DNA of 64,000 bases. It comes from Malacoraja senta. Taxonomy: Eukaryota. The position numbers and the translations under genes were made by a program. Location: the NCBI GenBank assembly GCA_038087875.1, contig CM075993.1, positions 11,286,001 to 11,350,000 of the forward strand, given 5' to 3'. Below, in pieces: positions 442 to 62,588 of this stretch. Below the pieces are notes generated by a model. It was not told where the DNA came from. It made no database searches and saw nothing but the letters and a program-made list of their open reading frames with translations. Each line of letters starts with the position of its first letter. The stretch's first letter is position 1.

Positions 442-722
442 CCCTTGCATCCCCGCTCTCTCCATCCCTCCCCACCTTAGTCATTCTGCTAGTTTTACTG
501 TTCGTATCCCTTCATTATCACTTCCTCCACAGCCAACAATGGATCATTGTGTGCTCTTTGAGCTGCGTTGCCGGCTCTGATCTGTCCTGTAACTTTTCAT
601 ACCTCTAGTTTCCCTCTCCCCTGACTCAGTCTGAAGAAGGGTCTCGACCCGAAACATCACCCATTCCTTTTCTCCAGAGATGCTGCCTGTCCCGCTGAGT
701 TACTCCAGCATTTTGTGTCAAC
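442..722 (+). mobile_element. Penelope 3' end / pseudo-LTR containing a hammerhead-like core at 631-658
   Basis: Directly follows the GIY-YIG stop codon. Contains CTGAAGAAGGGTCTCGACCCGAAACATC followed by ACCCATTCC...GCTGAGTTACTCCAGCATTTTGTGTC, the unit dispersed across the window. Confidence 0.8.
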
Positions 723-1019
723 TTTTGACTCTTGTCTGCTCTGTGGCAAGTTGGCATGGAGTAGCAAAAGCAGTTAGTGTGAGTTGCCTTAAACGCTGAG
801 GGAGAACAGGTCTCAGTGATGTGTAAGAAGGAACTGCAGATGTTCGTTCAAACCGAAGATAGACACAAAAAGCTGGAGTAACTCAGTGCTGGGACCTCAT
901 GTCCATTATTTCTTTATTAACCTTTCCCTAGTAAGGTTCTTTCTTGCCTGTGTAAATGGCTCGATCTCCTTCTTGCGTTTGGAGTGCACGTCCAAAAGTT
1001 GAATCATATGTAAAGAATC

Positions 1020-1495
1020 ATATGCTGTCATATGCTGAGAGAATGGAGCAGCTGGGCTTGTACACTCTGGAGTTTAGATGGATGAGAGGAGATCTCATTG
1101 AAACATATAAGATTGTTAAGGGCTTGGACACGCTGGACGCAGGAAACATGTTCCCGATGTTGGGGGAGTCCAGAACCAGGGGCCACAGTTTAAGAATAAG
1201 GAGTAAGCCATTTAGAACAGAGATGAGGAAACACTTTTTCTCACAGAGAGTGGCGAGTCTGTGGAATTCTCTGCCTCAGAGGGCGGTGGAGGTAGGTTCT
1301 CTGGATGCTTTTAGGTTCTCTGGATGCTTTCAAGAGAGAGCTAGATAGGGCTCTTAAAAATAGCGGAGTCAGGGGATATGGGGAGAAGGCATGAACGGGG
1401 TACTGATTGGGGATGATCAGCCATGATTACATTGAATGGCGGTGCTGGCTCGAAGGGTCGAATGGCCTACTGCATCTATTGTCTACTGTCTATTG
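1020..1495 (+). mobile_element. CR1/HER1 LINE 3' fragment
   Basis: ORF2 C-terminus (LGLYTLEFRWMRGDLIETYKIVKG...TRGHSLRI...FFSQRVASLWNSLP) plus 3' UTR ending in CTATTGT repeats. Confidence 0.9.
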
Positions 1496-1997
1496 TTGTG
1501 GGACAAGTTGTTCTATTTGATCTTATTTGATTGTGCTCGCCGGGTTAATTGCATTTGTCGAAACAGAGCGGACCACGTGAAAGTTGCAATCTTCTATCCC
1601 AATGGCTCGATTAGAATCATGTGTTGTCTTTTCACTGACTGGATAGCCGCAACAAAAGCTTTTAACTGTACCTCGGTACACGCGACAATAAACTAAACTG
1701 AACTGAAACTGATAACATACTGATATAGATTGAGAACTGATTATTGGGCAAAGAGCAAAATGAAAGACGAAACATAGCCACCATGGGCTAGAAGGCTTGA
1801 GGGGTGATGGGTTGGGGAGGGGGTGGGGGGTGGGGATCTGTGCTCAAATTTTAATGTCAAGTAATAATTTTGCTGAGAGAACGAAATGCCACATTTCCAA
1901 GTTGCTGAAGATACTAAAGTAAATGGAGGAAGATTTAACGAGAATTCAGAGGCTGTGGACAAGAAGCTTTTTGCCACATTGGATATTGACTACAGAA

Positions 1998-2322
1998 TGT
2001 GTAGGGAAGGAACTATAGACAAAATGTGTAGGAAGGAACTGCAGATGCTGGTTTAAACCGAAGATATGCACAAAATGCTGGAGTAACAGCGGGACAAGCA
2101 GCATCTCCGGAGAGAAGGAGTGGGTGACATTTCAGGGTCGAGACCCTTCCTCGGACTCCACCGAAGATAGACATTAAAAGCTGGAGTAACTCAGCGGGAC
2201 AGGCAGCATTTCTGGAGAGAAAGAATGGGTCTGACAATGGGTTTTGATCCGAAACGTCACCCATTCCTTGTCTCCAGCAATGCTGCCCATCCCGCTGAGT
2301 TACTCCAGCATTTTGCGTCTTT
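1998..2322. repeat. Cluster of Penelope-derived hammerhead-bearing repeats (two minus copies, one plus copy)
   Basis: GTGTAGGAAGGAACTGCAGATGCTGG...GGGTCGAGACCCTT on the minus sense, and CCGAAACGTCACCCATTCC on the plus sense. Confidence 0.8.
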
Positions 2323-2324
2323 TT

Positions 2325-2870
2325 TGAGTACAGAAGTTGGGAGGCTATGTTCCAGTTGTACAAGACATTGGCGAGAACACATTTGATTTATTGTGTACAG
2401 TTTTGGCCACACTGCTATTGGACAGATGTTGTTAAGCTGGAAAGAGTACAGAGATGATTTACGAGGTTGCTGCCTGGACTTGAGGGTCTGAGCCAAAGGG
2501 TGTGGTCGGACAGGCTAAGAGTTTGGAGGACAGGAGGATGAGGGGTGATTTATGGAAGTCTTTTACCCAGAGTCTCTTTAGAGGAATCATAAACAAGAGA
2601 TACAGATATAAGCTGAGAGGGAAAAGATTTAATAGGAAGCTGAGGGGCATTTGTTTTCATGCACAGTGTGGTGGGTGTGTGGAATAAGCTGCCAAAGGAG
2701 GTAGTCAAAGCAGAAACTATAACAATATTAAAAATACATTTGCACAGGTACATGGATAGGAAAGGTTTAGAAGGATATGGGCCAAATACGGGTCGGTGGT
2801 TTTAGTGTAGATGGGACATGTTGGTCGGCATGGGCAAGTTGAGCCGAAGTCTGTTTCCATCCTGTAGCTC
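2325..2870 (+). mobile_element. Degenerate CR1 LINE 3' fragment
   Basis: Remnants of LYKTL.R.HL.Y.VQFW, RRMRGDL and KLRGKRFNRKLRG, plus a CR1 tail. Confidence 0.8.
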
Positions 2871-3269
2871 CTCCAGCTTAATCACTCTATGAAGATGGTG
2901 TGGAAAAATATATATGATTTTGGTTCAGCCTTTTAGACTGCAGCAGGATACAGATGAGATGGAAAGTTGGGTGGAGCTTTGGCAGATGGAATTTAATCCT
3001 GTCATGTGCAAGGTGGTTCATTTTGGGAACATTAAATAATGGCAGGGCCTTAAGGAATGTGGATGAACAGAGATACCTAGGGGGGTAAGTCCATAGTTTT
3101 GAAAGAGGCAACAGAGGTAGATTGGGTGGTGGTCATGTCAGGCAGGTTTGAGAATTTGAGACCTGGAACAACAATATGTTGCAACTTTACAAAACACTGG
3201 CTAGGCCGCACGTGTACAGTTCTGGTCGCCATAGGAACGATGTGATTAAGCTCGGGGGGGGCAAAAAAT

Positions 3270-3492: not shown

Positions 3493-4634
3493 TAGTCCCT
3501 TAGAAGGATGGGAGTGGATATAAGATTATTAAGGGTATGGACACGCTAGAGGCAGGAAACATGTTCCCGATGTTGGGGGAGTCCAGAACCAGGGGTCACA
3601 GTTTAAGAATAAGGAGTAAGCCATTTAGAACGGAGACGAGGAAACACTTTTTCTCACAGAGAGTGGTGAGTCTGTGGAATTCTCTGCCTCAGAGGGTGGT
3701 GGAAGCCGGTTCTCTGGATGCTTTCAAGAGAGAGTTAAGGGGCTGTCCCACTGCGGCGACCTAATCTGCCAGTTTAGAAGAGTCAACTCGCAGCATGGAC
3801 AACACGTGGTCCTAGGAGGTCACTGGAACTCTCCTTCATGCTCGAGGGAAGTTCCCGCATACCCGCGCGCGGCCTCAGTTTGGTCGAGGAGAATTTTTCT
3901 GGCTGTAAAATTTGCTTCAGAGGGGTTTTCTTTTTGTATGTAAAAACCCACTTGAGAACCATGGGCGATTTTAAAATTTTACAGCCAGATTTATCACTTC
4001 TGAAACTTTTTAGATGACAAAGGAATCAAGAAAAAACACAAATAATGCCTTAGTGTTGATGAAATGCAGTGAGCAAACAGCCAATGCTTGTCAAGCACTT
4101 TGGCTGTTGTTGTCCCTTCAGCTCTCGCTTCTATCTACCGTCATTTCTCCTCACTTTTGGAATTCTGAAGTAGGCTAAATGTCTCTCACGCTTATCCCGA
4201 TTTCCATATTTATTTACAGCGCAAAAATGGACAATTTCGGCGGGTTTTAACGGGCCCGCTACGCTGGAAACAATGGTCAGTGCTTACCTGCAGTTCATCG
4301 CGTGTACTCCATTTGGCGTAGCGTAGCAACAGTACGGGTCATGGGTCGTGACCCGACTGCCGTGCAACCTCCCTATAAGCCAACCCAGTTGAACACTCCC
4401 TCGCCCAACCCTCCTGCATTTAATGTCATTAATTGAGTCACATTTAAAGTTTGTACCTTTGCACTTGGCTGGTTTGGTCACGACTCGAGAGGTCACTCCA
4501 GGGAAATGTTGGAAATGCAAAAAAAAAAAAAAAAAAGTTGGAGATCGTAAATCAACAGAAAATGCTGGTGAAACTCTGCAGGTCGGGCAGCACTTGTGTA
4601 GAGAGAAACTGAGTTAATGCTGAGTAATGCTAGT

Positions 4635-4924: not shown

Positions 4925-4929
4925 GAGTC

Positions 4930-7960: not shown

Positions 7961-7970
7961 TTACAGATAT

Positions 7971-8178
7971 TAGACAAAAATGCTGGAGAAACTCAGCGGG
8001 TGAGGCAACATCTATGGAGCGAAGGAAATAGGCGACGTTTCGGGTCGAAACCCTGAAGGCTTTCGGCCCGAAACGTTGCCTATTTCCTTCGCTCCGTAGA
8101 TGCTGCCTCACCCGCTGAGTTTCTCCAGCATTTTTGTCTACATTCGATTTTCCAGCATCTGCAGTTCCTTCTTAAACA
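7971..8178. repeat. Palindromic pair of hammerhead-bearing Penelope-derived repeats
   Basis: AGACAAAAATGCTGGAGAAACTCAGCGGG...GACGTTTCGGG is mirrored by CCCGAAACGTT...CCCGCTGAGTTTCTCCAGCATTTTTGTCT. Ends about 40 nt before the ICE2 acceptor. Confidence 0.85.
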
Positions 8179-14185: not shown

Positions 14186-14855
14186 CTGAGGAGGCCCTCG
14201 ACCCGAAACGTCACCTATACATGTTCTCCACAGATGCTGCCTGACCCACTGAGTTACTCCAGCACTCTGTGAAACGTCACCTATCCATGTTCTCCAGAGA
14301 TGCTGCCTGACCCGCTGAGTTACTCCAGCACTCTGTGTCTCTAATGTGATCGCTCAGGAGTCAGCCCTTCCTGGTTGAAACACTCACACAACACAAGCCA
14401 AGCCAAGCCAAGCCAAGCTGGGCCCTCTCCTGGACTGAATGTGATCTAACACACCACACATTCCAGCAGTGGGTCCTCCTTGCCCGGTGAAAACATGAGA
14501 ATGACTTGTGCCAACATGCAGTGGCAGCACTTGTATCGCAACCCTTGTGGAGGGAGCGGACAGACTGAATGAAGGCTGCAGATAGACACAAAAAGCTGGA
14601 GTAACTCAGCGAGACCAGCAGCATCTCTGGAGAGAAGGGATGGGTGACGTTACGGGTCGAGACCCTTCTTCAGACCAGAAACGTCGCCCAATCCTTCTCT
14701 CTGTCCCGCCCACTCCCCTGACATCAGTCTGAAGAAGGGTCTCGACCCGAAAGGTCGCCCATTCCTTCTCTCCAGAGATGCTGCCTCACCCGCTGAGTTA
14801 CTCCAGCATTTGTGTCTACCTTCAATTTAAACCAGCATCTGCAGTTCCTTCCTAC
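14186..14855. repeat. Hammerhead-bearing Penelope-derived repeats in the putative ICE2 3' UTR (tandem plus 14186-14340, minus ~14578-14675, plus ~14729-14855)
   Basis: CTGAGGAGG...CCGAAACGTC at 14186, a second GAAACGTC at 14271, a reverse-complement copy ending CCCTTCTTCAG, and CTGAAGAAGGGTCTCGACCCGAAAGGTC at 14729. Confidence 0.8.
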
Positions 14856-14960
14856 TCAAATACCAGCACGTCCCACTTGGCTGGGGTTGGAACCACATTC
14901 CTCACTCAAGTGCACATTATATAAGGGAGGGGTAAAGACTGTGTTTTCACTGGACAGTGG

Positions 14961-19681: not shown

Positions 19682-20303
19682 TAAGGAATCAAAGGATATG
19701 GGAAGAAAGCAGGAACGGGGTGCTGATTCTGGATGATCAGCCGTGATCATATTGAATGGCGGTGTTAGCTCGGAGGACCGAATGGCCTACTCCTGCCCCT
19801 ATTTTCTATGTTTCTATAAACCTTTCCTACACATGAACCAGTCCAAATGTCTTTTAAATGCTGTTACAGTACCTGTCTTAACTACCTCCCCCCAGCAGCT
19901 TGTTCCATATACTCACTGCCATCTGAGTGAAAGATTTGTCCATGATAAACTGGGAAGCACTGTAGAGTTGCTGCCTTACAGCTCCAGAGACCCGGGTTCG
20001 ATCTTGACTACGGGTGCCGACTAAGTTCTCCCCGTGACCTGCATGGGTTTTCTCCGGGTGCTCCGGTTTCCTCTCACACTCCAAAGACGTACAGGTTTGC
20101 AAGCAAATTGGCTTTGATAAAATTGTAAATTGTCCCTAGTGTGTGCGGGAATCGCTGGTCAGCACGGGCTCGGTGGGCTGAAGGGCCTATTTCCACTCTG
20201 TATCTCTGACTAAACTGCACAAATGTACGTAAAACCACCAGAAAAAGATAGGTTTACGAAGGAACTGCGGATACTAGAAAAATCGAAGGTAGATAAAAAT
20301 GCT

Positions 20304-20427
20304 GGAGAAACTCAGCGGGTGAGGCAGCATCTATGGAGCGAAGGAATAGGTGACGTTTCGGGTCTCGACCCGAAACGTCACCTATTCCTTCGCTCCATAG
20401 ATGCTGCCTCACCCACTGAGTTTCTCC
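20304..20427. repeat. Near-perfect 124-nt palindrome made of two inverted hammerhead-repeat halves
   Basis: 61-nt arms centred on GGGTC-TC-GACCC, with one mismatch. Confidence 0.92.
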
Positions 20428-21906
20428 TGAAAAAGATAGGTGGTGTGTAGGAAGAAATTGAATGCTGCACTGAGCTTCAGGAAGCTGAGGAGAGGAGTTG
20501 ACTGAAGGAACAATCCTAGTTGCACCCGCTGCTGGGTTCTGTAGGGAAAATAACATCAGTTTCACCAAGTTAATCCAATCTTCAACAGTGAACTTGCAAA
20601 CCAATAGTTAGTTTTGTATTGGAATCAATGAATCTCTCACATCTCTGCCCAAACCTGCCCCTGCCATCTCTCCGTGAATTCCAAACACACACTGTGACAA
20701 TGAAGTTCTGCCCTGACTTGATGGCATTCTGTGGAAACACTAACAAGCTTCTTGGCGAATTGGAAAAGGCACAAAGAACCGAGGTTTAATTTAGTTCAGA
20801 GATACAGGCCCTTCGGCCCACCGAGTCTGCACCGACCATCGATCCCCGCACACTAACACCATCCTACACACACTAAGGACAATTTACATTTATACCAAGC
20901 CAATTAACCTGCAAACCTGTACGCCTTTGGCGTGTGGGAGGTAAACCAAAGATCTCGGAGAAAACCCACATTTTCACGGGAAGAACGTACAAACTCCGTA
21001 CAGACAGCACCCCTGTACACTAGCACTATCCTACACACAAGGGACAATTTACATTCTGTACCAAAGCGAATTAACCTGCAAACCTGTATCTCTTCAGAGT
21101 GGAGCGCAGAAGGTTAAGTGGGGACTTGATAGAGGTCTTTAAAATGATGAGCGGGTTAGACAGAGTTGACGTGGATAAGCTTTTCCCATTGAGAGTAGGG
21201 AAGATTCAAACAAGGGGACATGACTTGAGAATTAAGGGACAGAAGTTTAGGGGGAACTTCTTTACTCAGAGTGGTAGCTGTGTGGAATGAGCTTCCAGTG
21301 GAAGTGGTGGAGGCAGGTTCGATTTTATCCTTTAAAAATAGATTGGATGGGTATATGGACGGGAAAGGAATGGAGGGTTATGGTCTGAGTGCAGGTAGAT
21401 GGGACTAGGGGGAAGAAAGTAGGAAAAAAAAGTGTTCGGCACGGACTTGAAGGGCTGAGATGGCCTGTTTCCGTGCTGTAATGGTTATATGGTGAAGGGA
21501 GGAAACCTGAGCACCCAGGGAAAACCCAGGGGAGAACGTACAAACTCCGTACGGACAGCAGCCGAGGTCAGGATCGAAACCGGGTCTCTGGTGCTGTGAG
21601 GCAGCAACTCTACCACCGGGCCGCCCATTTATGGGGCATAGATCGGCTGTGGGAGCATTCACAACACAAAACCAACACTCAAGAGTATAAAGGGCAAGTT
21701 TAAACTGGAATAGGTGGTGTGCCACCCACTGTTTAGACTCGGCTGTGATGCCTGAACTGGGAACTCAATGTAACTGGGAACTATAATGAACTAAAAATAA
21801 TGGGAACGGCAGATGAACTGGAGAGGCTTCAGTGGGTGAGGTTGAAAGGGCGAGATGCAAAACCACTATCGTGCATCATGGTTTGGGTGGTTTGACAGGT
21901 TTGCAG

Positions 21907-22213: not shown

Positions 22214-24313
22214 AGGTACTATCAGAACGTTGAAGAAACATTAAGACAGGTACATGGATAGGACTGATTAGAGGGATATGGGCCAAAATCTGGCAACTTG
22301 GACTAGTTTAGATGAGGCATGTTGGTCAGTGTGGGCAAGTTGGGTCGAAGGGCCTGTTTCCACACTGGATGACGATGACTTGGATGCAGTGAGGTAGGTT
22401 GTCCATGATAAACTGTGCAAATGTGGGTAAAATCATAGTGCAGTGAATTTAATGGCATTGAAATACAGAGAGACCTTGTGGTGTATGTCCACAGACCCAT
22501 GAGAGTGGCAACGTGAATAGGCAGTGAAGATGGCATTTGCCGTGCTTGCCTCCAAGGCTGAGGCATTGAATATAAGAGTTGGGATGTCATATCGCAACAC
22601 AACATTGGTTGGACTATGTAGAGTATTGAGTACAGGTCTGGTCTGCACACCACATGCAGGCACTAGAGAGAATGCAGAAGGGACAGATACAAAATGCTGG
22701 AGTAACTCAGCAGGACAGGCAGCATCTGTGGAGAGAAGGAATGGGTGACGTTTCAGGTCATGATCCTTCTTCAGTCTCGACCCGAAATGTCACCCAATTC
22801 CTTCTCTCTGGAGAGGCTGCCTGTTACTCCAGCGTTTTGCGGTTATCTTCAGTTTAAACCAGCATCTGCAGTTCCTTCCTCAACAGATTCACCAGGATGT
22901 TGGCTGGAATGTGGGGCTGCAGTTATAGAGAGGGATCTGTTAGGCTGGGTTTACCCTCAATGGAACGTAGAAGGCAGAGGGTGACACAATGGAGGTTTAG
23001 ACAATTATGAGGGACATAGACTGTTTTCCCAGGGTGGAGGAGTCACAGGTTTAAGGTGAGAGGAGATCAGGGGGGTAAGTCACGCAACATGTGGCAGTAG
23101 TGGAGGCAGATGTGATTACAATTGCAAAGTAAAAGATCTTAGGACGGGTGCATTGAATACGAAAAGCGTAGCATGATACAGGCCTATAGGGAATGAGAGG
23201 TTATGGGGAGAAGGCAGGAGAATGGGGTTAGGAGGGAGAGATAGATCAGCCATGATTGAATGGCGGAGTAGACTTGATGGGCCGAATGGTATAATTCTGC
23301 TCCTATCATTTATGACCTTATGACCTTAGTACAGGCGAATGGGATTAGTGTAGATAGACAAAATGCTGGAGTAACTCAGCGGAACAGGAGGCATCTCTGG
23401 AGAACGTGGATATGTGTAGTGTAGGGTGGTGAATCTGTGGAATTCTGTGTCACAAGGCTGTGGAGGCCAAGATAGTCGATATTTTTAAGGCAGAGATCGA
23501 TAGCTTCTTGATTTGTACGGGTGTCAGAGGTTATGGGGAGAAGGCAGGAGAATGGGGTTAGGAGGGAGAGCTAGATTGAATGGCGGGGTAAACTTGATGG
23601 GCCGAATGGACTAATTCTACTCCTATTCCTGATTACCTTAGACTGGTATCGCAGTGGGCATTGACCAGGTGGGCAGAAAGGGCCCGTGTCTGTGCAGTAC
23701 GATGCTATGATTGTAGGAGAGAGGACTTGAATCTGTGCAACATCTTGTTGCAAGTTGGGAAAGCCGAGTGAAGGTGGATCCTGCTCTTAACCAAAGTCCA
23801 AGCATGGGCTTAACATCACCAGAATGTTTCTGCACAGGACAGTAGGAGCAGGCGGGCAGGTGGGACTAGTGTAGCTGATGTGGGCAATTTTAACAGGAAC
23901 ATCCACCACAGTGATTCCTCCACATTCCTCATTGGTCAAAAAAGTTCAATCTCTCCCTTCTTTGTCCTCCAGCGGTCGGGGGGCCTCTAATCTTCCGTTG
24001 ACAGGACGATCTCACTCCCGTAGCCGGCGGCGGGCCTCCTCGTCAGGGCGATCAAACTCCTGCATCGGGTGGGGGGGAAATCTCAGCCCCCACCGCCGGG
24101 CGATCTGACCCCGGGTCAGGGCTAGTCGAATGTCGTGCGGCTTTTGGAGATCCTGACGTCGGTCTCAACCCGGGACTGCGAGCTCTCAATGGTAATAAAT
24201 AGACACTTTATTGTTACATGTACCATGAAGGTACAGTAAACACTTTGTTTTTGCAGACACAGTTCACTAGAGAGTCGCCACAAGGTGCTGACAAGGTTAC
24301 AAAAGTATCCTTA

Positions 24314-27449: not shown

Positions 27450-27825
27450 AAGATAGACACAAAATGCTGGAGTAACCCAGCGGGACAGGCAGCATCTCTG
27501 GAAAGAAGGAATGGGTGACGTTTCAGGTCGAGACCCTTCTTCAGTCTGAACACTGAAACTCAGACTTGGTGATGGTGCCAGAGCTCTCTGTCAAACTCTC
27601 AGACAGTTCTGATTCTTGAAGAATCGGGACTCTTTCTGGAGACAATGTAATGAGTCCAACCTCAGACGTAATGAGACCCTTATTGGAACTCAGTCTGAAG
27701 TGAGACTGAAGAAGGGTCTCGACCCAAAACGTCACCCATTCCTTCTCTCCAGAGATGCTGCCTGTCCCGCTGAGTTACTCCAGCATTTTGTGTCTACCTT
27801 CAGCATCTGCAGTTCCGTCCTACAC
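27450..27825. repeat. Inverted pair of hammerhead-bearing repeats with a ~160-bp spacer
   Basis: Minus copy ends GAGACCCTTCTTCAG (27544); plus copy starts CTGAAGAAGGGTCTCGACCC (27706). Confidence 0.85.
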
Positions 27826-38055: not shown

Positions 38056-38236
38056 GTAGGAAGGAACTGCAGATGCTGGTTTAATCCGAAGATAGACACA
38101 AAATGCTGGGGTAGCTCAGGCAGCATCTCTGGAGAGAAGGAATGGGTGACGTTTCGGGTCTGAAGAAGGGTCTCGACCCGAAATGTCACCCGATGCTGCC
38201 TATCCCGCTGAGTTACTCCAGCATTTTGTGTCTATC
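38056..38236. mobile_element. Palindromic hammerhead-repeat unit inserted into an HE1 SINE, with a 14-bp TSD
   Basis: Flanked by TGGAGTTTGCACGT (38042-38055) and TGGAGTTTGCATGT (38237-38250). Confidence 0.8.
38154..38193 (+). ncRNA. Minimal type I hammerhead ribozyme motif (best-paired copy)
   Basis: Stem I UCGGGU/ACCCGA, CUGAAGA(A), stem II GGGU-CUCG-ACCC, GAAA, and a GUC cleavage triplet; stem III is vestigial. Confidence 0.65.
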
Positions 38237-40265
38237 TGGAGTTTGCATGTTCTCCCTGTGACTGCGTGGGTCTCCTCCTGGTCCTCCTCATTCTTCCCGC
38301 AACCCAAGGATGTATAGGTTTCTTCAGGGATTCTGCCCGACCCTGTTACTCCAGCACTTTGTGTCTTTCTTTACGAAACCGACATCTGCATTTCCTTTGA
38401 CTGCTCCACTGTGAAATCTCCTCAAGGTGTGCCTACTGTGAGAAGATCTCCTCCTCTCTCTGACATAGAGGTCCTGACCAGAAACATCACCCATCTACGT
38501 TCACCAGGGATGCTGCCGGACCCACTCAGCTACTCCAGTGCTTTGTGTTTTTTTCTCTGGGTTTGTAGGCTAATTGACCTCTGGAAAATTTGCCCCTAGT
38601 GTGCGGGGAGTGGATGAGAAAGTTTGATAAACAGAACTAGTGGAACTGGGTGATTGATGGTTGGCATCGACAGGTGGGCCGAAGGGACTGTTTCCATGTT
38701 GTATCGAAACTAAGGTGGCACGGTGGCGCAGCGGTAGAGTTGCTGCCTTACAGCTCCAAAGACCCGGGTTCGATCCTGACTACGGGTGCTGTCTGTGCGG
38801 AGTTTGCACGTTCTCCCCGTGACCGCGTCGGTTTTCTCCGAGATCTTCGGTTTCCTCCCACACTCCAAAGACGTGCGGGTTAATTGGCTTGGTATAATTG
38901 GAACTTGTCCCTAGTGTGTGTGTGTGTGTGTGTAGGAGAGTGTTCGTGTGCGGGGGTCGCTGGTCGGCACGGACTTTGTGGGCCGAAGGGCCTGTTTTTT
39001 GCCCTGTATCTCTAAACCAAACTGAACTAAACTAAATTAAACCCTGCCGTTGAAAACACAATAATTGAGCCACTTCGAGTGCTGATATTGCAAGCTTTCT
39101 TGTAACACTAGGCGTGACTTTGGCTGGGGTTCCTGGCAGATTACGGATCGGACTGTCACGGGCTTCTCCAGAGCCACGTTGGGCGGGCCAGATCCTTGGT
39201 GTGTTGGGCTCTGTGTTTCCTCATGAGCTCTGTGTCGGCATTAGTTGAGGTTTTCAGCCCGAGGGTTGCCATGGTTTCTGAGACGTCGAGCCCACATGCA
39301 CATTCCATTCCGTGTGTGTAACGGGGTGTGTTTGCCAACTGGTTGAACTTCTGCAAGTTTTAAACTGTTTGCCTGCTCTCTGTATCACACCAGCCCCTCG
39401 AACCCTGTTCAGAAAGGGGTTCCACTAACCCAATGCTTCTACAAGTTTAGTTTAGTTTAGAGATATACGGTGTGGAAACAGGCCCTTCAGCCCACTGTGT
39501 TCAGCAGTCACTATGGTTCACTGTCAATAGACACAATGCTGGAGTAACTCAGCGGGACAGGCAGCATCAGGAATGGGCGACGTTTCGGGTTGAGACCCTT
39601 CTTCAGACTGGTTAACTATCCTACACACACACTTGGGACAATTTACAGAAGCCATTTAATCTGTACATCTTTGGAAAGTGGGAGGAAACCGGAGCCCCCG
39701 GAGGAACCGAATAGTGAAAGGCTTGGATAGAGTGGATGTGGAGAGGATGTTTCCACTAGTTGGAGAGTCTAGGACTGGAGGTCACAGCCTCAGAATTAAA
39801 GAATGTTCCTTTACGATGAGGAGGAATTTCTTTAGTCAGAGGGTGGTGAATCCGTGGAATTCTTTGCCACAGAAGGCTGTGGAGGCCAAGTCAATGGGTA
39901 TTTTTAAGGCAGAGATAGATAGATTCTTGATTAGTATGTGTGTCAAGGGTTATGGAGAGAAGGCAGGAGAATGGGGTTAGGAGGGGGAGATAGATCAGCA
40001 ATGATTGGATGGCTGAGCAGACATGACGGGCCGAATTACCTAATTCTGCCTTAATCACATGACTTTATGTAACGCACAGGGTCGCAGGGAGAATGTGCAA
40101 ACTCTGTACGGACAGCTCCCGTAGCCAGGATCGAACCGGGGTCTCTCGCGCTGTAAGGCATTAACTCTGCTGCTGTGTCACCGTGCAGCCCCCTCCCCCA
40201 GCCTCGCCAACATTGCCACTGGGTCTCCCCTCGTCTGCTTATCTAGCTCTGCTGTCTCACACAAG

Positions 40266-40590: not shown

Positions 40591-40596
40591 GACAGG

Positions 40597-40624
40597 CTGA
40601 AGAAGGGTCTCGACCCGAAACGTC
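40597..40624 (+). ncRNA. Consensus hammerhead core CTGAAGAAGGGTCTCGACCCGAAACGTC (repeat continues to ~40725)
   Basis: All core nucleotides are present, with the self-complementary ACGT stem III. Local stem I pairing is poor. Confidence 0.6.
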
Positions 40625-41072
40625 ACCCATTCCTTCTCTCCAGAGATACTGCCTGACCCGCTGAGTTACTCCTGCTTTTTGTGTCTATCTTTGGTTTAAT
40701 CCAGCATCTGCAGCTTTTTCCTACAGTCAGCACTAGTTTGGCCAACGTGCCTTGATTTCGAAATGAACAGCTCAGCATCCTGTCCACTGTGGACGCAGCG
40801 ACTATGATTCATTCGTTCCGCACTCGTTTCTCTGCGAGAGAGGGAGTAATGCTTGGCTGCCAGCTGCGGCTCGCTAGCCCAGCCCGCCTCTAATAACAGG
40901 GGCGAGGAAGGCCAATGATTCATCAGTGTTGGGACCAAGCACACACAGGCAGAGACTTCTGTCCTCGCTGCTCCGAATAATGTTTCCTCTCCTGCCTTGT
41001 CGGACCCAATGATGGCATTCGTTTCATATTTGATTTTCTTTTCTTTTTGCCCCAGTTTGTTCCTGAATCAAA

Positions 41073-41492: not shown

Positions 41493-44400
41493 TTCTTTGA
41501 GTTGGGGCATGGGTTGGGCCACGGGCCTTTGGGAGGGGCATAGACCTTGGGTTGGGGTATTGACTGTGTTGGGGCAATGAACTTGGGTTGGAGCATTGAC
41601 TTTGTGTTTGGGCAAAGATCATGTTGGGGCCAGGGCTTTGGATCAGGGCATCAACCTTGGGTTGGGGAAGGACTTTGGGTTGGGGCCTGGACTTTGGGTT
41701 GGGGCCTGGGCTTTGGGTTGAGGTGGGCCCTGTTCTCTGGCGTTCGATGGAGTTTATGGCTGGGCTTTGTTGATGGAGCTTTGATCTGGGGACAAGGCTG
41801 TGGTGTCTGAGCCAGACTTGGGTTCTGAGCCGCCAGTGTGCCTTTGGGCGATGGATGTAACCTCTATTCGACGTGGTGTCGCTGTGATCCCAGTGTGGCG
41901 TGGGTTCCCCCTGGGCAAGGCTTTAGCCTCTGGTTACGAGTGGCAGGGGCTGAATGATCCTGCCACTCGTAAGGTTACATGCCCAGGCGAGTGCCCCACG
42001 CTGTATAACTCTCTAAAACCCAACACCTCCGTGCAAACTCCTGGCCCTGGACGCAACGCTGGGCCTGAAGCCTGGCGGGGGTCAAAGTTCATGGGTCAAA
42101 GTGAAGCCTTGGCCAAGGGACAGAGGTCCGGGATCTGGGTGAACACGGTGGCAGTGTCGCAGCGGTAGAGTTACTGCCTTACAGCGGCAAAGACCTGGTT
42201 TGATCCTGACTAAGGGTGCTGTCTGTGTGGAGTTAGCACGTCTCCCTGTGACCATGTGGGTTTTCTACGGTTAATCTAGTTCTCAAATATATGTAACATA
42301 ATCCTCGATAATCACAAAATATAGTTCTCAACATTGTAGCGCATCAGTTCCATAGACAAAGTCCAATGTCCGCAATGGGGTAGAGGTGAATCGGACAGTA
42401 CCCTCGCTAATGGAAGGGCCGTTCATGAGCCCGATAACAGTGGGGAATAACCCGAGTGTTACCTTCTGCCAAACAAGAGCAGTAAGAAGCAGGAATGACT
42501 GGGGTGCGACAAGTCTTTGATTATAAGTAGTGAGGCACGGTAGAGTTGCTGCCTCGCAGCACCATAGACCCGGGTTCGATCCCGACGTCGGTTGCTGTCT
42601 GTACGGAGTTTGTATGTTTTCCCTGTGACCTGGGTGGGTTTTCTCTGGGTGTTTCGGTTTCCTCCCACACTCCAAAGACGTGCGGGTTTGTAGCTTTGGT
42701 GAAGTTGTAAATTGTCCCCAGTGTGTAGAATAGTGTTGGTGTATGGGGATCGCTGGTTGGCGTGGACACGGTGGGCAAACAGGCCTGTTTACGTACTGTA
42801 TCTCTGAACTAAACCTTTAAGGCATGACATCTCTTGGCTCCTTCTCTGAATCTTGTCGCATGCACCAAGATCATGTCTGCAATGAGGTGCCCACAATATT
42901 GGGCCCAGGCACTGTGTACTTTCAGCTGGCTCTCCTCCTCTACAAACCATTAACTGTTGAACAGTGCTGTGCTTGCTGCCATGCCAATCCTACAAGCAGT
43001 TGCCTTCCTCCAGAAACGGGAATAGTTTAAGACAAACAAGTTTACATCATGTCCACCATTGCCTGGTGCTCCAGTTTCAAATAACATAACACAAGTTCCA
43101 GGAACAGAATTAGGCCATTCGGCCCATCAAGTCGACTCCACCATTCAATCATGGCTGATCTACCTTTCCTCTTAACCCCATTCTCCTGCCTTCTCCCCAT
43201 AATCCCTGACACCCCTGTACTAATCACAAATCTGCCAATCTCTGCCTTAAACATATCCCTCGACTAAGCCTCCACAGCCAGTTATGTGGCAATGAATTCC
43301 ACAGATTCACCACCCGCTGCCTAAAGAAATTCCTCCTCACCTCTAAAGGTGAGGCTCTGGCCTCTGACCATTTGTGGAAACATCATCTCCACAGCCACTC
43401 TATCCTGGCCTTTCACTGTTTAAGTTTCAATGAGGTGCCCACTCATCCTTCTAAATCTCCTTTGAGCCTACATTTGAAGTTCCATCACTGTCCTTTCAAA
43501 GGTAGACACAAAATGCTGGAGTAACTCAGCGGGACGTGCAACATCTCTGGAGAGATGGGATAGGTGATGTTTCGGGTCGAGACCCTTCTTCAGACGGTCA
43601 AACCCTCTCCCCACATCCTATAGACACCTCGCACCTTTCTGCTAGTTTGTAACTGGTAAAGCCCCTCTCAATCACACACAATATATAAATACTCCTCACT
43701 TCACCCAAAACCATTTAAGGTGGTGCAGCGGTGGAGTTGCTGCCTCACAGCGCCAGAGACCCAGGTTCGATCCTGACTACAGGTGCTGCCATTAATGTGC
43801 AGGATAGTGCTAGTGTGTGGGGATCGCTGGTCAGCATGGACTCAGTGAGCCAATGGGCCTGTTTCTGCACTGTAATGTCATAATGTCCCCATAGTGTTTA
43901 TAGCTCGGAGGTTGTAGTGTTTGATAGCCTGATGTTTGAAGGGAAGAAGCTGTTCCTGAACCTGGACGTTACAGCTGTCGGGCTCCTGTACCTTCTCCCT
44001 GATGGCAGGGGTGAAATGAACGTGTGGCCAGGGTGGTGATGGAACATCGAACAGCACAGCAACAGGCCCTTCGGCCCACAATGTCCGTGCTGAACATAAT
44101 GCCCCTCAACTTGGAACTGTGAGCCTTGATCTTCTGACCTATGGAACCGGAATTACGTTCTAGGAGTAGAATTAGGCCATTCGGCCCATCGAGTCTACTC
44201 CGCCATTCAACCACGGCTGATCTCTGGCTCCTAATCCCATTTTCCTGCCTTCTCCCCATAACCCTCGACACCCGTTCTAATCAAGAATTTGTCTATCACT
44301 GCCTTAATGTTCACTGACGGCCTCCACAATGGGTTCCACAGATTAACTACGCTCTGACTAATGAATTCCTGAGCTTGTTTTCTCTGAGAGTTGGCTGGGT

Positions 44401-45033: not shown

Positions 45034-46098
45034 CACTGATCTGAGCTCAGCGCTGACCTCTCTTTCACTGACACGTTATGCTGTTATTTTCACTGTTAAG
45101 AGGTCCCAGGACTGAGCGGGTGGGACTGTTACCCACCACACACACACATCAATACTCAATCAGTCTTTGTTCTCCGCATCACACCCCTTCCTTACTTTAG
45201 CCTAGGTGTTTAGTTTAGTTGAGAGATACAGCGCGGAAACAGGCTCTTCAGCCCAGAGTCCGCGCCGACCAGCGATCCCCGCATATTAACACAATCCTAC
45301 AGGCCGATGATCACCAGTCACAGTGAAATACAGTTTGCACAAACAGCTCGGCAAGAGGGCAGTGTGTACAGAGCAGCCTGGGGGAGGGGGAGATCAGGAG
45401 GTGAGAAAAGACCAAAACTAATTGGGGCTGGATTTCTGTTCTGGCCTTTTCTCATCAGTAACCCTCCCTTTCAGTCTGAAGAAGGGCTGTGTCCCGAAAC
45501 ACCACCTATTCCTTCTCTCCAGAGATGCTGCCTGACCCGCTGAGCTACTCCAGCACTTTGTGTCTATTTTCAGTATAAACAGGCATCTGCAGTTCCTTCC
45601 TACACATTGAATATATGTCGGGACTGTCATGATGCAGCTCTTGTTTAGGCTGCATTTGGAGTATTTCGTGTAGTTGAGGTGGGTCTGACTAGTATGGGTG
45701 TCAGGGGCTGTGGGGAGAAGGCAGGAGAATGGGGTTAAGAAGGAAAGATGGATCAGCCATGATTGAAGGGCGGAGTAGACTTGATGGGCTGAATGGCCTA
45801 ATTCTACTCCTAGAACTTGTGAACATGGACTTATGGAAGTGGGTTAGGGTTAGGTTCAGTCATGTGGACATCCCCCAGGTTGCTATAGGTGGCCCACCCA
45901 AGGGTGCTGGGGGCTTGTGTTTGTCCTCAGTACGGTGGGATCTCACTGTGCCAAATGGGATGAGATCCCCCTTAACCCTGGGGCAAAGCTGCATGATGGG
46001 GTGGGGTCCCCCACTGGCCCATTGAGGGAGGGGGAGGAGGAGGGGTGAGACCCCCGAGGCTGGTTGGGTGGAGATGAACCCCTTACTTTCCCTTTCAG

Positions 46099-52850: not shown

Positions 52851-53800
52851 GGTAGAGTTGCTGGGTTTCAGCATTTGCAGCGCCAGAGACCCGGGTTCGA
52901 TCCCGGCTACGGGTGCTGTCTGTATGGAGTTTGTACGTTCCCCCCGTGACCTGCGTGGATTTGCTCTGCGATCTCCGGTTTCCTCCCACACTCCAAAGAC
53001 GTGCGGGTTTGTAGGTTAATTGGCTTGGTGTAAATGTAAATTGTCCCTAGTGTGTGTAGGATAGTGTTAATGTGCGGGGATCGCTGGTCGGCGCGGACTC
53101 GGTGGGCCGAAGGGCCTGTTTCCGCGCTGTATCTCTAAACTAAACTAAACCTGCCCCTGGGAATAGCAAGATGCACAGGACATCAGATCCAAGGGAACAC
53201 CATGAGGAATAGTGTGTGTTTGTAGATTAGCTCATGTTGTTTTGTATTAGTTAAATCACTTTATGTTACATTTTGTTACTCTACTTTGTGTAGATATACA
53301 ATAAGAGAGAGACAAAAAGCTGGAGTAACTCAGCGGGACAGGCAGCATGTCCGGAGAGAAGGAATGGGTGACGTTTTGGGTCTGAAGAAGCGTCTCGACC
53401 CGAAACGTCACCCATTCCTTCTCTCCAGAGATGCTGCCTGTCCTGCTGAGTAACTCCAGCTTTTTGTGTCTATCTATGGAAACAGGCCCTTCAGCCCAAC
53501 GGGTCCATGCACACCATCAATCTCCCAGTTCTGTAGTACTTTAGACTTTGCCCATGGAGTCCGTGCCGAACAGCGATCACCCATTTACGCTAGTTCTGTC
53601 CCACACACTGGCGACAACATGCAGAGACAATTAACCTACAAACCTGCACGTCTTTGGAGTGTGGGAGGAAACCGGAGATCCCGGAGAAAACCCACGCGGT
53701 CAAGGGGAGAACGTCCAAACTCCGTACAGACAGCACCTGTGGTCGGGATCGAACCCGGGTCTCTGGCGCTGTGAGGCAGCAACTCTACCGCTGTGCCACC
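52851..53800. mobile_element. HE1 SINE plus (52851-53150), palindromic hammerhead-repeat pair (53310-53475), HE1 SINE minus (~53478-53800)
   Basis: SINE consensus in both orientations; core TGGGT-CTGAAGAAGCGTCTCGACCCGAAACGTC-ACCCA at 53377-53414. Confidence 0.85.
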
Positions 53801-53951: not shown

Positions 53952-55368
53952 GTGAGTGAGTGGGCGCTGAGCTAAACACACAACTCTCCACCTACATCAG
54001 TAACTTGTTGTTGCCTCACGGGTCAAACGTAGACACAAGACACTACACCGGCATTGAGCCCAAGAGTCAGGGTGTCAGTGCTTGAAGAGTATAGACAAAG
54101 AACTCCAGATGTTGGTTCATACCCAAGATAGACACGAAGTGCTGGAGTAACTCAGCGGGCCAGACAGCATCTCTGCAGGACGTGGATAGGTGATGTTCAT
54201 TTCAGTTCGGGACCCTTTTTTAGTTTAGAATTAAATAAATGTGGTCCCCAATGTTCTCACGGCGCCCCCGCCCCCCCCACCTACGCCAGGTCCCTCATTG
54301 TTCTCGGAGGTGAGTCCTAATCTGACCGCCAGCATCTGTGGAATTTTCTGCCTCGGAGGGCGGTGGAGGCCGGTTCTCTGGATGCTTTTAAGAGAGAGCT
54401 GGATAGGGCTCTTAAAGATAGTGGAGTCAGGGGATATGGGGAGAAGGCAGGAACGGGGTACTGATTGGGGATGATCAGCCATGATCACATTGAATGATGG
54501 TGCTGGCTCAAAGGGCCAAATGGCCTACTCCTGCACCTATTGTTATTGTCACTGATACAGGCAACAGCTTACCAACGGCCCTCTACTCTCACCAGCGGGC
54601 CCCCCTCTCTCTCTGCCCGCCCTACTTGCTCCTCTGGTGCCCGTGCCTGCTCCAACGTGGTGACACAGCACTCACTGCGAGCTCCCTTAAGCGTTGGCGC
54701 TGGGTTTAGTTGATGTTGGCATCATGTTCGGCTTGGATATTGTGGGTGGGATGGCCTGTTCTCTGCTGTTCGATGCTCTCTGTTCTAAACATCTGCCTGT
54801 GTTCAGACGTCAACTCCCTCTGCAGATAGACACAAAACTCTGGAGAAACTCAGCGGGACAGGCAGCCTCTCTTGAGAGAAGGAATGGGTGACGTTTCGGG
54901 TCGAGAGCCTTCTTCAATACTCACTGCCTCTGGTTCTTGTCATTTAAATCTATCACTGACCCCAGGAAGCGCATTCCGTGTCTTATCCAAACTCCACGCA
55001 CACATTCCCTCTAATTTGCTTTCTTCCACCCCCTCCCTACCTAGTTTGATGTATCGTGGCTGAGTATATGTCCAGCTGCTGAATGCTCGGACTTAGCCCG
55101 ACAGAAGAGCTGAATGCTTCCATGATCTTAGAGTCATGGAGTCATGCAGCACTGAAACAGGCCCTTCAGCCCAACTCGCCCATACTGACCCCATTGAAGC
55201 TTGACCACCACCTTGAACACAAGTTATTTGGAACTGGCGCAGATGGGGCACCAGGGTCGGCATGGGCAAGTTGGGCCGAAGGGCCTGTTTCAGCACGGTA
55301 TGAGTCTACGACCACCATAATACAGCACTAACTAAGTGGAAGACTAACGGTGTTTCCAATCTTTACAG

Positions 55369-56594: not shown

Positions 56595-57156
56595 GTAGGT
56601 GCCTCGATTACGCCCTCTATGCAGGCAGTGCGTGTGCTCTAACCCCTCGATTACGCCCTCTATGCAGGCAATGTGTGGGTCACTACCCCTCACTATAGCC
56701 TTCAGTAGCAACACTGTGTGTTCGAAAGCCTCAGTGGGTAGCTGTAGTGAGGGCTTCACCACCCCATGCAAAGCCCTCAGTGGAGGGTGTGTGTGGGTGC
56801 GTGCGCGCGCGTGCTTGTGTGTGTGTTTCACCACAGCGTACCTGAATCGTCACCCACACCTTCTCTCCGGAGATGTTGCCTTACCCGCTGAGTTACTGCA
56901 GCATTTTGTATCTATCTTCGGTTTCCACCAACATCTGCAGTTCCTTCCTACACTTCAGTTGAGGAAGTTGGTGGACCTTCCAACAGCTCCATGTGTGTAT
57001 CTGTCTCTGTCTCTGTGATCTAGTGTTCACACACGGAGCTGGCCCAGGATAGAGGCATGGAACACCAGCGGGGATGGGCAGCAGGGTGGCTCAGCTGGTA
57101 GAACCTCTGCCTCACAGCGCCAGAGACCCAGGTTCGATCCTGACCTCGGGCTCTGT

Positions 57157-59008: not shown

Positions 59009-59825
59009 GTAACAACAGCGCTTGGCAGAGTGACTTGCTCACACCTCAGCAACGGAGCAGTAACATGTTGACAGAAGTCGCTGGGAACTCACTGGATGTT
59101 TTCAAGAGAGAGTTAGTTTAAGCTCTGAGAGCTAACGGAATTAAGGGATATGGGGAGAAAACAAAGAAACATAGAAAATAGATGCAGGAGGAGGCCATTC
59201 GGCCCTTCGAGCCAGTACCACCATTCATTGTGATCATGGCTGATCGTCCCCTATCAATAACCCGTGCCTGCCTTCTCCCCATATCCCTTGACTCCACTAG
59301 CCCCTAGAGCTCTATGTAACTCTCTCTTAAATCCATCCAGTGATTTGGCCTCCACTGCCCTCTGTGGCAGGGAATTCCACAAATTCACAACTCTCCGGGT
59401 GAAAACAGGAACAGGGTACTGATTGTGGATGATCAGCCATGACCATATTGAATGGCGGTGCTGGCTGGAAGGGCCGAATGGCCTACTCCTGCACCTATTT
59501 TCTATGTCTCTATGAAACACGCAGCGGGTCAGGCAGCCTCTGTGGAGAGAGAACATGGAGTCATAAAGTGCCAAAACAGGCCCTTCGGCCCAACTCGTCC
59601 ATGCCGACCAAGATGCCCCAACTAGGCTAGTCCCACCTGCCCGCTTTTAGTTTAGTTTAGAGATGCAGCACGGAAACAGGCCGTTCGGAGAACATGCAAA
59701 CTCCACGCAGACAGCACCCGAGGACGGGATCGAACCCGGATCTCTGGCGCTGTGAGGCAGCGGCTCTAACAGCTGCGCAACCGTGCCGCCCTTGTGAATC
59801 AAGGGTCAGAAATAGTCAGAAATAA

Positions 59826-60051: not shown

Positions 60052-60306
60052 TAAGTCTTTTTGCCTGGCCTAATGTTGCTGAAATAATTTGTACATTCAT
60101 CAAGATAATGCTAGCAATGCATCTCTCACCTACTGTAAGTGGTTCGTCATCACTGGTTATAGACACAAAATGCTGGAGTAACTCAGCGGGGCAGGCAGCA
60201 TCTCTAGAGAGAAGGAATGGGTAACGTTTCTGTTGTTCTGGCAGCTGTGATCCTTCACCATCAATGAGCAACATTCCTGTTCTAACCTGAATTTCTCTGT
60301 GTTTAG

Positions 60307-60362
60307 TTTTCCAGCGATACAATACCTACAGCCCCATCAAGATAAGTGAAAGTGTCAAAGAT
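60307..60362 (+). CDS. ANXA2: Annexin A2 coding exon 9, truncated by the assembly gap
   Basis: TGTTTAG| then (V)FQRYNTYSPIKISESVKD versus human VFDRYKSYSPYDMLESIRK; runs into the Ns. Confidence 0.88.
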
Positions 60363-60562
60363 NNNNNNNNNNNNNNNNNNNNNNNNNNNNNNNNNNNNNN
60401 NNNNNNNNNNNNNNNNNNNNNNNNNNNNNNNNNNNNNNNNNNNNNNNNNNNNNNNNNNNNNNNNNNNNNNNNNNNNNNNNNNNNNNNNNNNNNNNNNNNN
60501 NNNNNNNNNNNNNNNNNNNNNNNNNNNNNNNNNNNNNNNNNNNNNNNNNNNNNNNNNNNNNN
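60363..60562. other. Assembly gap (200 N, probably a fixed-size scaffold join)
   Basis: Run of exactly 200 N. Confidence 0.98.
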
Positions 60563-60679
60563 TGCCCAACGCACTCAACAGTGTGGAGGAACTAAGTCTA
60601 AGTAAGTCTCAACCTTCTAAATTTCAGACCATACAAGCCCAGCTGCTCCATTCTATCAACATACGACAGTCTCGCCATC

Positions 60680-61117
60680 CCGGGAATTAACCTCGTGAAC
60701 TTACCTCAATAGCAAGAATGTCCTTCCTCAAATTTGGAGACCAAAACTGCATACAATACTCCAGGTTTGGTCTCACTAGGGCCCTGTAAAACAGTAGGAC
60801 CTCTTTGCTCCTATACTCAACTCCTCTTGTTATGAAGGCCAACATGCCATTAGCTTTCTTCACTACCTGCTGTACCTGCAAGCTTACTTTCAGTGAGATG
60901 AACAAGGACCCCCAGATCTCTTTGTACTTCCCCTTTTCCCAACTTGACACCATTCAGATTATAATCTGCCTTCCTGTTTTTGCCACCAAAGTGGATAACC
61001 TCACATTTATCCACATTAAACTGCATCCTGCCATGCATCCGCCCACTCACCCAACCTGTCCAAGTCACCCTGCATCCTCATAGCGTCCTCCTCACAGTTC
61101 ACACTGCTACCCAGCTT
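60680..61117 (-). mobile_element. CR1 ORF2 fragment
   Basis: MQFNVDKCEVIHFG..., VQQVVKKANGMLAFITRGVEY...LVRPNLEYC. Confidence 0.9.
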
Positions 61118-61585
61118 TGACCCACCGTCCACACCGACCAGTGATCACCCCGTACAAAAGCACTATCCTACACACTATAGATAATTTTCAGAAGCCAATT
61201 AACCTACAAACCTGCACGTCTTTGGAGGATGGGAGGAAACTGGAGCACCCAGAGAAAACCCACGTAGTCATGTGGCAGATCGTACAAATTCTGTACCAAC
61301 AGCACCCGTAGTCAGGATCGAACCGGGTCTCTGGTGTTGTAAGGCTACCTCTGTGTCACCGTGTCGCCATGCAGAATGAACCGTTCCAGCTGCAGCCACA
61401 ACATGAACATCCTCATCTGTGGTATCACACATTGGCGGAGCCAGTCGCTCGGCCCAGAAACATGAGAAACATCGGCACTGTTTACTACAAGGGTGCAAGA
61501 GATGCTGGGGTGTAGAGGAGACAGCACAAAATAGACAGGCACACGTTCAGCAACGGGGACTGCCCTTGCCCATCGAGAAACTCAC

Positions 61586-61696
61586 CAGCCGAGATCAACA
61601 CGTAAGCGGAAAACAAGGCAATCTCATCCTCCACCAAGTGCAGCGCACACAGACTTTTGCCGGTTTCAAAGACAGAGTTGATCAAGTCATCACAAC
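61586..61696 (-). CDS. RORA: RAR-related orphan receptor (RORA-like) ligand-binding-domain exon, 111 nt
   Basis: Minus strand: CTTGTTCTGCAG|GTTGTGAT...TCGGCTG|GTGAGT, phase 1-1. (G)[36 protein letters not shown] versus recalled human [41 protein letters not shown]. Confidence 0.88.
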
Positions 61697-62588
61697 CTGC
61701 AGAACAAGAGATGAATGGACAATTAAATCATGCCTAGTGAATGACCTTTTCTTCAAAGCAGGCCTGATGCCCACTGTTTTTGCAGACTGGTGCAACTGTT
61801 GGAACTTCGGAAACCCCCCAAACAATCATTGCCAAGTAGGATTCGTCAATAGTATTTAAAATCCAGAGGCTGACCAATAGCAGAGAAGTCTGCTTGAAAC
61901 CATAAGTAACAGATTACTCCGCTCAAATAACCAAGAGTTACTGTGGCAAACCAGCCAGTGGGTTCAGGCCACTAGACCTGGTACAATTTGCAAATCTCCA
62001 CAAATTAGCGACCCACAAAATCTGAAAAAGGTTCCTGACCCAAAATATCACCCATCCCCTTTCTCTAGATTTACTCCAGCACTTTGTGTCCATCCACACA
62101 TTATTGATTGGTTTTGTGTAATCCAGTTTGCATCTCGCCCTTCACCACTTCTAGTCTTGTTAACAACTAGCTACATCGGTATATTGGTTATCCTTAAAAA
62201 GTTACGTATTTTTAAGCAATGGATTTTGCCCATTGTGGTGGACACTCCCTCGCCAGGACTCATGCATTGGATGAGAATGTACAAGGCATGATTACTAAGT
62301 ATGCAGATTACACTAAAGTGGGTGGTATCGTTGACAGCAAAGATGGTTGTCAAAAATTACAGCAGGATCTTGATCAGCTGGGCAAGTGGGCTGAAGAATG
62401 GTTAATGCAGTTTAATGCAGATAAGTAATGTTACATTTTGGGAAGTCAAACAAGGGCAGGACTTTCATAGTGTCCTGTGAAGTGTTCTAGAGTAGAGGGA
62501 TCCAGCAGTACAGGGATCCAGGAGTACAGCCACATATTTCCTGAAAGTGGTGTCACAGGTAGATAGAGTGGCCAAGAAGGCTTTCAGT

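Follow-up and report, generated by a model that had tools for sequence, protein, structure and literature searches.

The question raised by this locus concerns the origin of a short repeat. A 64,000-nucleotide stretch of the Malacoraja senta genome (assembly GCA_038087875.1, contig CM075993.1, positions 11,286,001 to 11,350,000; hereafter the window) contains many dispersed copies of a unit that carries a minimal hammerhead ribozyme core and derives from a Penelope retrotransposon. An earlier note made from the sequence had proposed that these copies form an independent family, similar to retrozymes or short interspersed nuclear elements (SINEs). The analysis indicates instead that the short copies are likely by-products of the copying of a full-length element and not a self-spreading ribozyme family. 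More specifically, it is proposed with moderate confidence that they are dead-on-arrival cDNA stubs, which comprise the initial ~100 or ~135 nt of a Neptune-type Penelope together with its hammerhead core and are formed by run-off of the reverse transcriptase (RT) from the 5' end of the RNA.

The Penelope origin is visible at the left edge of the window. The translation of 148-438 corresponds to the C-terminal GIY-YIG region of the Penelope open reading frame (ORF) and is followed by a stop codon (439-441), a pyrimidine-rich untranslated region (UTR) of ~190 nt and a unit at 628-728, which agrees with the earlier description of 148-722 as a unit joined to the GIY-YIG end. The 97-aa fragment alone gave no family in a Pfam search; its identity came from comparison with a full-length ORF of the same genome (73% identity, 99 aligned positions). 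The first 20 long-ORF candidates were all truncated, and full-length copies were found through an RT search. Of the 150 matches that it scored, almost all share 95-98% identity, and their open frames reach 1,302 codons. Among 20 fetched loci, the intact element shows a tandem period of 3,996 bp composed of the unit, the ORF, a 116-nt UTR and the unit again. The unit, which directly precedes the ORF, is entirely pseudo-long terminal repeat (pLTR) sequence, and young full-length copies of ~4.0 kb with open ORFs are present in the genome. The ORF comprises 1,250 codons from stop to stop and matches RVT_1 (E 7e-6) and GIY-YIG (E 1.5e-3), both below the curated Pfam cut-off. Its single frame with RT and C-terminal GIY-YIG endonuclease (EN), together with tandem or partial-tandem pLTRs, inverted 5' copies and an optional tail of 30-40 nt, are the features of EN+ Penelope-like elements (PLEs). 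A CX4CX2C linker was read between RT and EN in one ORF (P0002, L152:3493-7245), as expected for the Neptune-type layout of RT, CX2-5CxxC linker and GIY-YIG defined in PMC8557442; the assignment as putatively Neptune-type follows this layout rather than an RT tree. The same ORF harbors a proline-rich region of ~350 aa with short repeats ahead of the RT, and the ORFs of rotifer Penelope elements are shorter (~840 aa, PMC3846280). Sixty-three endonuclease-linked copies (some loci fetched twice) display several distinct UTR types, mostly of 100-235 nt, with the same core downstream.

In the window, a search with the 28-nt motif of the earlier note gave 14 matches at up to 3 mismatches, compared with none in 100 shuffles, and a single exact match, the 40597 copy. 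A unit profile built from 8 long window copies detected 44 fragments, 24 on the plus and 20 on the minus strand. The previous figure of about 25 copies is therefore an undercount, although every position named then was recovered, including 45476 and the minus copy near 2140. The unit had been described as ~130 nt beginning at CUGA; it starts ~3 nt further upstream and occurs in two lengths, ~100 and ~135 nt. Its abundance was estimated across this vertebrate assembly of 1.94 Gb. Eighty evenly spaced 10-kb stretches contained 273 fragments of at least 30 bits, covering 3.4% of bases, and 200 kb of shuffled sequence contained none. With 40 further stretches, weighted to small chromosomes, the sample reached 1.2 Mb and 479 fragments, or 4.0 per 10 kb (interval 3.4-4.6), with densities of 2.8 on the two largest chromosomes and 6.7 on the smallest. 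Extrapolation from this sample, which covers placed chromosomes, gives ~0.5-0.8 million fragments and 3-4% of the DNA. In the whole genome, the 28-mer occurs 18,728 times as an exact string, and a 38-mer taken from the youngest subfamily occurs 6,504 times.

The origin of the copies was assessed from their ends. After removal of 13 fragments near stretch edges, 466 were analyzed, of which 203 stop within the unit and 263 reach its start. The latter comprise 118 solo copies, 70 in head-to-head arrangement and 75 that continue upstream for 23 to 1,500 nt and were assigned as UTR-linked by a known-UTR match (48), a shared flank (22) or pyrimidine content (5). A few bases upstream of the core, 188 of the 263 core-reaching copies (71%) stop. 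The stop rate per nucleotide falls from ~10% at this 5' boundary to 0.67% within the unit and 0.46% on the upstream side, so that random truncation is rejected; both the preferred boundaries and the amplification mostly without coding sequence had been anticipated in the earlier note. In the young family, 4,831 of the 6,504 exact cores retain the 3 upstream nucleotides and 3,522 retain 12. Thirty-seven young copies in which the 12 upstream nucleotides did not match exactly were inspected, and in 34 of them identity ends 0-6 nt before CUGA (mode -2). These include one long copy that carries a deletion, as well as two pairs of duplicated loci. Many of the inspected young copies carry clean target duplications. 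With a minimum length of 8 nt, target duplications bracket 19/91 solos and 28/71 pairs joined head to head (0-1 in shuffled pairings), and a scan of 15 solos of the window, which are old, found none. Small duplications of the first core bases were seen at the 5' junctions of four young stubs (L176, L184, L199, L224) and suggest template jumps at the stop point.

Two other origins of the 5' ends were considered. A peak of copy starts at the ribozyme cleavage site proved unconvincing, as only 10 of 466 copies start there, several of them explained by microhomology; uncleaved RNA is therefore taken as the usual template of the stubs. A 3' splice site came into question since the UTR ends in a pyrimidine tract and CAG and the intron of the Drosophila virilis element ends at helix I. 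It is disfavored because 2 of the 37 young copies end at -1, most retain 2-6 upstream bases and the target duplications abut without an extra exon.

The 3' ends fall at two points ~35 nt apart, which are common to short and ORF-bearing copies. For an anole element, Penelope tail ends map to two internal RT start points in vitro (PMC11167929). The head-to-head pairs combine these ends in a characteristic manner. Their target duplications are mostly 12-17 bp long and flank the pair as a whole, so that each pair represents one insertion. Among 82 pairs, 55 join a long and a short tail, 8 two short and 4 two long tails, and 15 were unclassed (p=5e-8), the mixed combination thus accounting for 55 of the 67 that could be classed. 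Copies tailed at just one end are already known (PMC8557442), and inversions of this kind have been explained by self-priming on antisense RNA, a mechanism proposed in PMC3846280. We infer that two-ended priming at two RNA start points fits the pair counts and the in vitro result better than self-priming. In 54 pairs, the arms agree in subfamily in 87% of cases (64% at random) and have 11 private changes in common out of 157/166 (matched controls: 6.4), with no excess of shared CpG decay (11 against 10.9 expected). This indicates that the templates were near-consensus sources and not decayed dispersed copies.

The absence of such pre-insertion decay in pair arms argues against an independent retrozyme- or SINE-like family, as do the 3' ends, which are the Penelope tail ends of ORF-bearing copies, and the lack of any cluster made of solos alone: each of nine sequence clusters holds both solo and UTR-linked members, and no source lineage without coding sequence was found at the resolution of the 238 sampled copies. 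The copies are dispersed and not tandem. Head-to-tail tandems with a complete ribozyme in each unit, as in retrozymes, were not found in the window, where the tandem at 14186 lacks an intact core. Since only 2 of 51 intact cores in the 1.2-Mb sample have a same-strand intact partner within 1 kb, the copies fall outside the retrozyme definition, save for one array elsewhere in the genome (L226, G000:C1:28,902,275-28,906,931). In this retrozyme-like array, a young Penelope unit shortened to 384 bp by internal deletion and made up of core, tail, ORF start and UTR is repeated 13 times head to tail; the core is intact in each copy, and the array would be a natural substrate on which dimer cleavage could be assayed.

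The motif itself is a minimal type I hammerhead, as stated earlier: the core CUGANGA / GAAA / UH, helix II and the G10.1-C11.1 pair are present in 9/9 cluster consensuses. All nine have an identical core and differ in loop II, at the H of the triplet and in the bases downstream; we infer that selection on the core acted in the source elements. In the helices, the consensuses show three one-sided wobble-compatible changes and no compensatory double change. In the window, Rfam at gathering threshold gave no match, and a hammerhead descriptor was satisfied by 3 of 44 fragments (40597+, 39606-, 27544-; none in 10 shuffles), the others failing. All core bases are kept in 69 of 238 5'-complete copies, and 51 intact cores occur in the sample, which extrapolates to 50,000-80,000 genome-wide. 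Helix I comprises 2 contiguous bp in 15 of 21 descriptor matches and 4 bp in one, short of the 4-5 bp sought. Cleavage is predicted to need a dimer and protein help. A 2017 paper in RNA Biology reportedly deals with dimeric PLE hammerheads. For D. virilis, a 2-bp helix I is reported. The motif matches the minimal hammerhead of PMC4209133, where thousands of dispersed single motifs, regarded as probable truncated elements, as well as opposite-strand pairs and low activity even as dimers were already described. Source elements retain the hammerhead, whereas their copies lose it by decay after insertion. The earlier view that ribozyme cores were seeded into the host goes too far: cores are present in introns, but most cores of the family are decayed, helix I has 2 bp and a same-strand intact partner within 1 kb exists for 2/51 intact cores.

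According to the proposed mechanism, the Penelope protein would cut both DNA strands ~13-15 nt apart, and reverse transcription would be primed from each DNA end at two internal RNA start points. The template of the stubs would be an uncleaved transcript beginning just upstream of the hammerhead, probably at the transcription start site; the RT would run off after ~100 or ~135 nt and the stub be fixed. Longer copies would come from templates without an end there, such as read-through RNA or circles made by the ribozyme. Pyrimidine-A steps are typical of transcription start sites, and the 5' ends cluster at such steps; the position of the stop fits a start site. Internal Penelope promoters are known (PMC2377424), and two internal RT start points were demonstrated in vitro for the anole element of the Poseidon clade (PMC11167929). 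A bolder version, which we regard as rather improbable, takes the stubs as a fossil record of two template classes, capped uncleaved mRNA yielding run-off stubs and hammerhead-cut, circularized RNA yielding long tandem copies. If true, the hammerhead would license productive retrotransposition, and two-ended priming at two RNA start points would be shown in vivo.

Several observations weigh against the run-off mechanism. The RT passed through 13 internal units, and none of these stops at the boundary, compared with 33 of 92 terminal units among the listed young copies (Fisher p about 0.01, computed with 34/92); a single transcript class is thereby excluded and two template classes must be assumed. 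No cap-derived extra G was evident in the inspected 5' junctions. The putative RNA end is read from genomic copies alone, and 27 of the 75 UTR-linked copies were assigned by a shared or pyrimidine-rich flank only. Solos make up a larger share of the older clusters and of the genome sample (71%) than they do of the young family (~36-46%), and young copies that re-amplified before diverging would pass the test of shared mutations. In addition, the in vitro precedent comes from another clade, and D. virilis transcription begins ~120 nt ahead of the hammerhead, with an intron in between (PMC2377424, PMC4209133).

A by-product origin is also compatible with a stop set by the protein, if the RT drops off after unwinding its anchor RNA domain or if the newly made DNA is cut by the endonuclease immediately before the core. 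With one template class, this would explain why the stop is limited to the unit at which the RT starts (0/13 internal units). Short- and long-tail copies nevertheless share one stop place, and the ends cluster at the pyrimidine-A steps expected of start sites. Pairing of the 5' end with the tail end is predicted for the young unit (z -2.4) but is missing in two window copies (z about 0), and the attribution of tails to endonuclease resolution (PMC8557442) accords with such a stop. We consider this explanation unlikely, though a serious contender. Somewhat less probable still is a non-autonomous SINE-like family, in which an internal promoter transcribes short copies that the Penelope protein re-inserts in trans. 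The fixed 5' end, the target duplications, the rise of solos with age, the internal position of Penelope promoters (PMC2377424) and the array of 13 384-bp units are all in its favor. On the other hand, solo-only clusters number 0/9, pair arms lack pre-insertion decay, most young solos match the ORF-bearing element through the tail and same-strand neighbors within 1 kb are rare (2/51). Moreover, the RNA inserted by the anole element must extend past the RT start points (PMC11167929), and the stubs have no such extension.

Random 5' truncation, or solo pLTRs left by recombination, without a preferred boundary would account for the 203 of 466 copies that stop inside the unit and for the variable reach of UTR-linked copies (23 to 1,500 nt), and solo pLTRs are known (PMC3846280). 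The boundary stop rate of 15-23 times that on either side, the absence from solos of the UTR that recombination would leave and their own target duplications make this very improbable. Hardly any credence is given to selection by the host for functional ribozymes in introns and UTRs. The extrapolated number of intact cores might suggest it, as might the divergence of non-CpG core positions from the cluster consensus, which is 4.6% against 7.3% downstream, a gap inflated by the choice of 5'-complete copies and by subfamilies left unseparated. However, G12 is mutated in 63 of 234 copies (27%) and the CG of stem III at 113 of 472 positions (24%), as fast as other CpG sites (downstream 91/457, 20%). 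Neither strand of the window is depleted (24 plus, 20 minus), and predicted folds sequester the core. The run-off of RT from an uncleaved transcript thus remains the favored explanation of the stubs. The copies in the window are compiled below.

Table. Penelope-derived features of the window (positions within the 64,000 nt).
Feature	Positions	Strand
Putative Neptune-type Penelope ORF, 5'-truncated 3' end, GIY-YIG endonuclease remnant with stop codon	148..441	+
Penelope UTR/pLTR part, pyrimidine-rich, ends directly before unit	442..627	+
Short-tail unit joined to UTR; stem III palindrome ACGU lost (631 copy)	628..728	+
3' fragment of long-tail unit	821..888	-
Solo unit, long tail, damaged core	2026..2157	-
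Head-to-head pair; minus arm begins at cleavage site, helix I lengthened to long stem; plus-core G8 mutated	2159..2330	.
Partial unit, old	4544..4605	-
Head-to-head pair, short + long tail, GUU-type subfamily, just upstream of NARG2_C-coding exon	7961..8175	.
Two partial units head-to-tail, spacing 85 nt, no intact core	14186..14342	+
Minus unit, small plus fragment and plus long unit with short UTR piece	14576..14856	.
Head-to-head pair, join at stem II palindrome	20254..20430	.
Head-to-head pair, short + long tail	22682..22880	.
Partial unit	23352..23426	-
Unit, intact core, helix I 0 bp	27421..27547	-
Long-tail unit, G12 mutated; inverted partner of 27421 copy at 155 nt	27703..27824	+
3' fragment, old	29396..29460	+
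Solo unit, long tail	31324..31455	+
Head-to-head pair, long + short tail	31935..32157	.
Unit preceded by ~70 nt UTR	32415..32510	+
Solo unit, long tail, damaged core	33680..33812	+
Unit preceded by ~140 nt UTR	34583..34683	+
Solo unit of older subfamily	36382..36500	+
Head-to-head pair, long + short tail	38055..38244	.
Two partial units, old	38319..38554	+
Solo unit, intact core, helix I 2 bp	39520..39609	-
Solo unit, long tail, sole exact 28-nt match, helix I 0 bp	40594..40725	+
Solo unit, short tail	43496..43595	-
Solo unit, long tail, damaged core	45473..45604	+
Head-to-head pair flanked by annexin exons	53303..53484	.
Old unit flanked by annexin exons	54097..54223	-
Solo unit, short tail, flanked by annexin exons	54820..54916	-
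Unit, 5'-truncated, long tail	56840..56952	+
Small fragment	59520..59553	-
Unit, 5'-truncated, short tail	60158..60232	-
Degenerate unit, old	62020..62132	+

In the pair at 2159-2330, the arms meet at the cleavage site, which makes helix I a stem of ~67 bp, and helix II still pairs. Host exons were recognized on the plus strand. One near 8.2 kb encodes NARG2_C (~8210-8450) and presumably belongs to ICE2; the inverted pair at 7961..8175 ends ~35 nt upstream of it. Others near 47.0, 53.9 and 55.4 kb (more precisely ~47000, ~53850 and ~55365) encode annexin, with annexin A2 as best match. The copies at 53303-53484, 54097 and 54820 are flanked by annexin exons and are therefore intronic, in line with the insertion into host introns noted earlier. 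A short peptide at 41067, resembling an annexin N-terminus, had no match in PDB. Further elements in the window include broken gag/pol-like frames of a long terminal repeat retrotransposon-like element, recognized by eye from the ORF list (15938-18894, minus), and remnants of at least two kinds of long interspersed nuclear elements (25298-25897 and 36985-37461, minus; 1021-1500, plus), which we take to be CR1/L2-like. Two minisatellites with a 30-bp period have long open frames in several phases (13600-14170, 41070-41540). Further short inverted-repeat elements, either similar to miniature inverted-repeat transposable elements or inverted SINE pairs, lie at 19348-19685, 29624-29941, 48292-48745 and 57665-58114.

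The repeat finding as framed is largely known, and it is the statistics of insertion ends that make the Penelope mechanism testable. The young family, with its thousands of identical copies and open ORFs, bears on the insertion mode of Penelope and on the role of its hammerhead. Countable tests are provided by long and short tails within one target duplication, by the limitation of the stop to the unit at which the RT starts and by the near absence of starts at the cleavage site. In genomes of this kind, a count of hammerheads is for the most part a count of decayed transposon stubs, here 3-4% of the genome, and not of working host ribozymes. A literature search, which included few subscription papers and neither supplements nor Repbase/Dfam, found no description of this Penelope family or of a fixed 5' stop.

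The elements described in 2021 (PMC8557442) share with the present one the ORF with RT and C-terminal GIY-YIG and the CX4CX2C linker. Also common are the minimal core, in which an additional base precedes helix II, with its ACGU palindrome and short helix I, tandem and inverted pLTRs, the 30-40-nt tail and mostly dispersed single truncated motifs. The present element differs in its ORF of ~1,240 aa with a long proline-rich region, in the sharp 5' stop just upstream of the core, which was not met in the accessible literature on such elements, and in scale, since 18,728 and 6,504 exact copies of two cores compare with ~9,000 in Xenopus and ~4,000 in coelacanth (2014 counts). The PAc/Poseidon element of Anolis (Frangieh et al. 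2024, PMC11167929) likewise has two internal RT starts that bound the tail, uses both DNA strands and has uncleaved RNA as main template. It belongs to a different clade, and its ORF starts inside helix II, compared with ~170 nt after the core here; the evidence here is genomic, namely head-to-head pairs of long and short tails with flanking duplications. Animal non-LTR retrozymes (Cervera and de la Pena 2020, PMC7229834; Li et al. 2026, 10.64898/2026.07.22.740005) are also non-coding, pLTR-derived and equipped with type I hammerheads. They form tandem repeats of 150-450 bp, often with canonical ribozymes and circular RNAs, whereas the stubs, of ~100-135 nt, lie dispersed as single units or in head-to-head pairs, and it is the 384-bp array alone (G000:C1:28.90 Mb) that fits the retrozyme definition.

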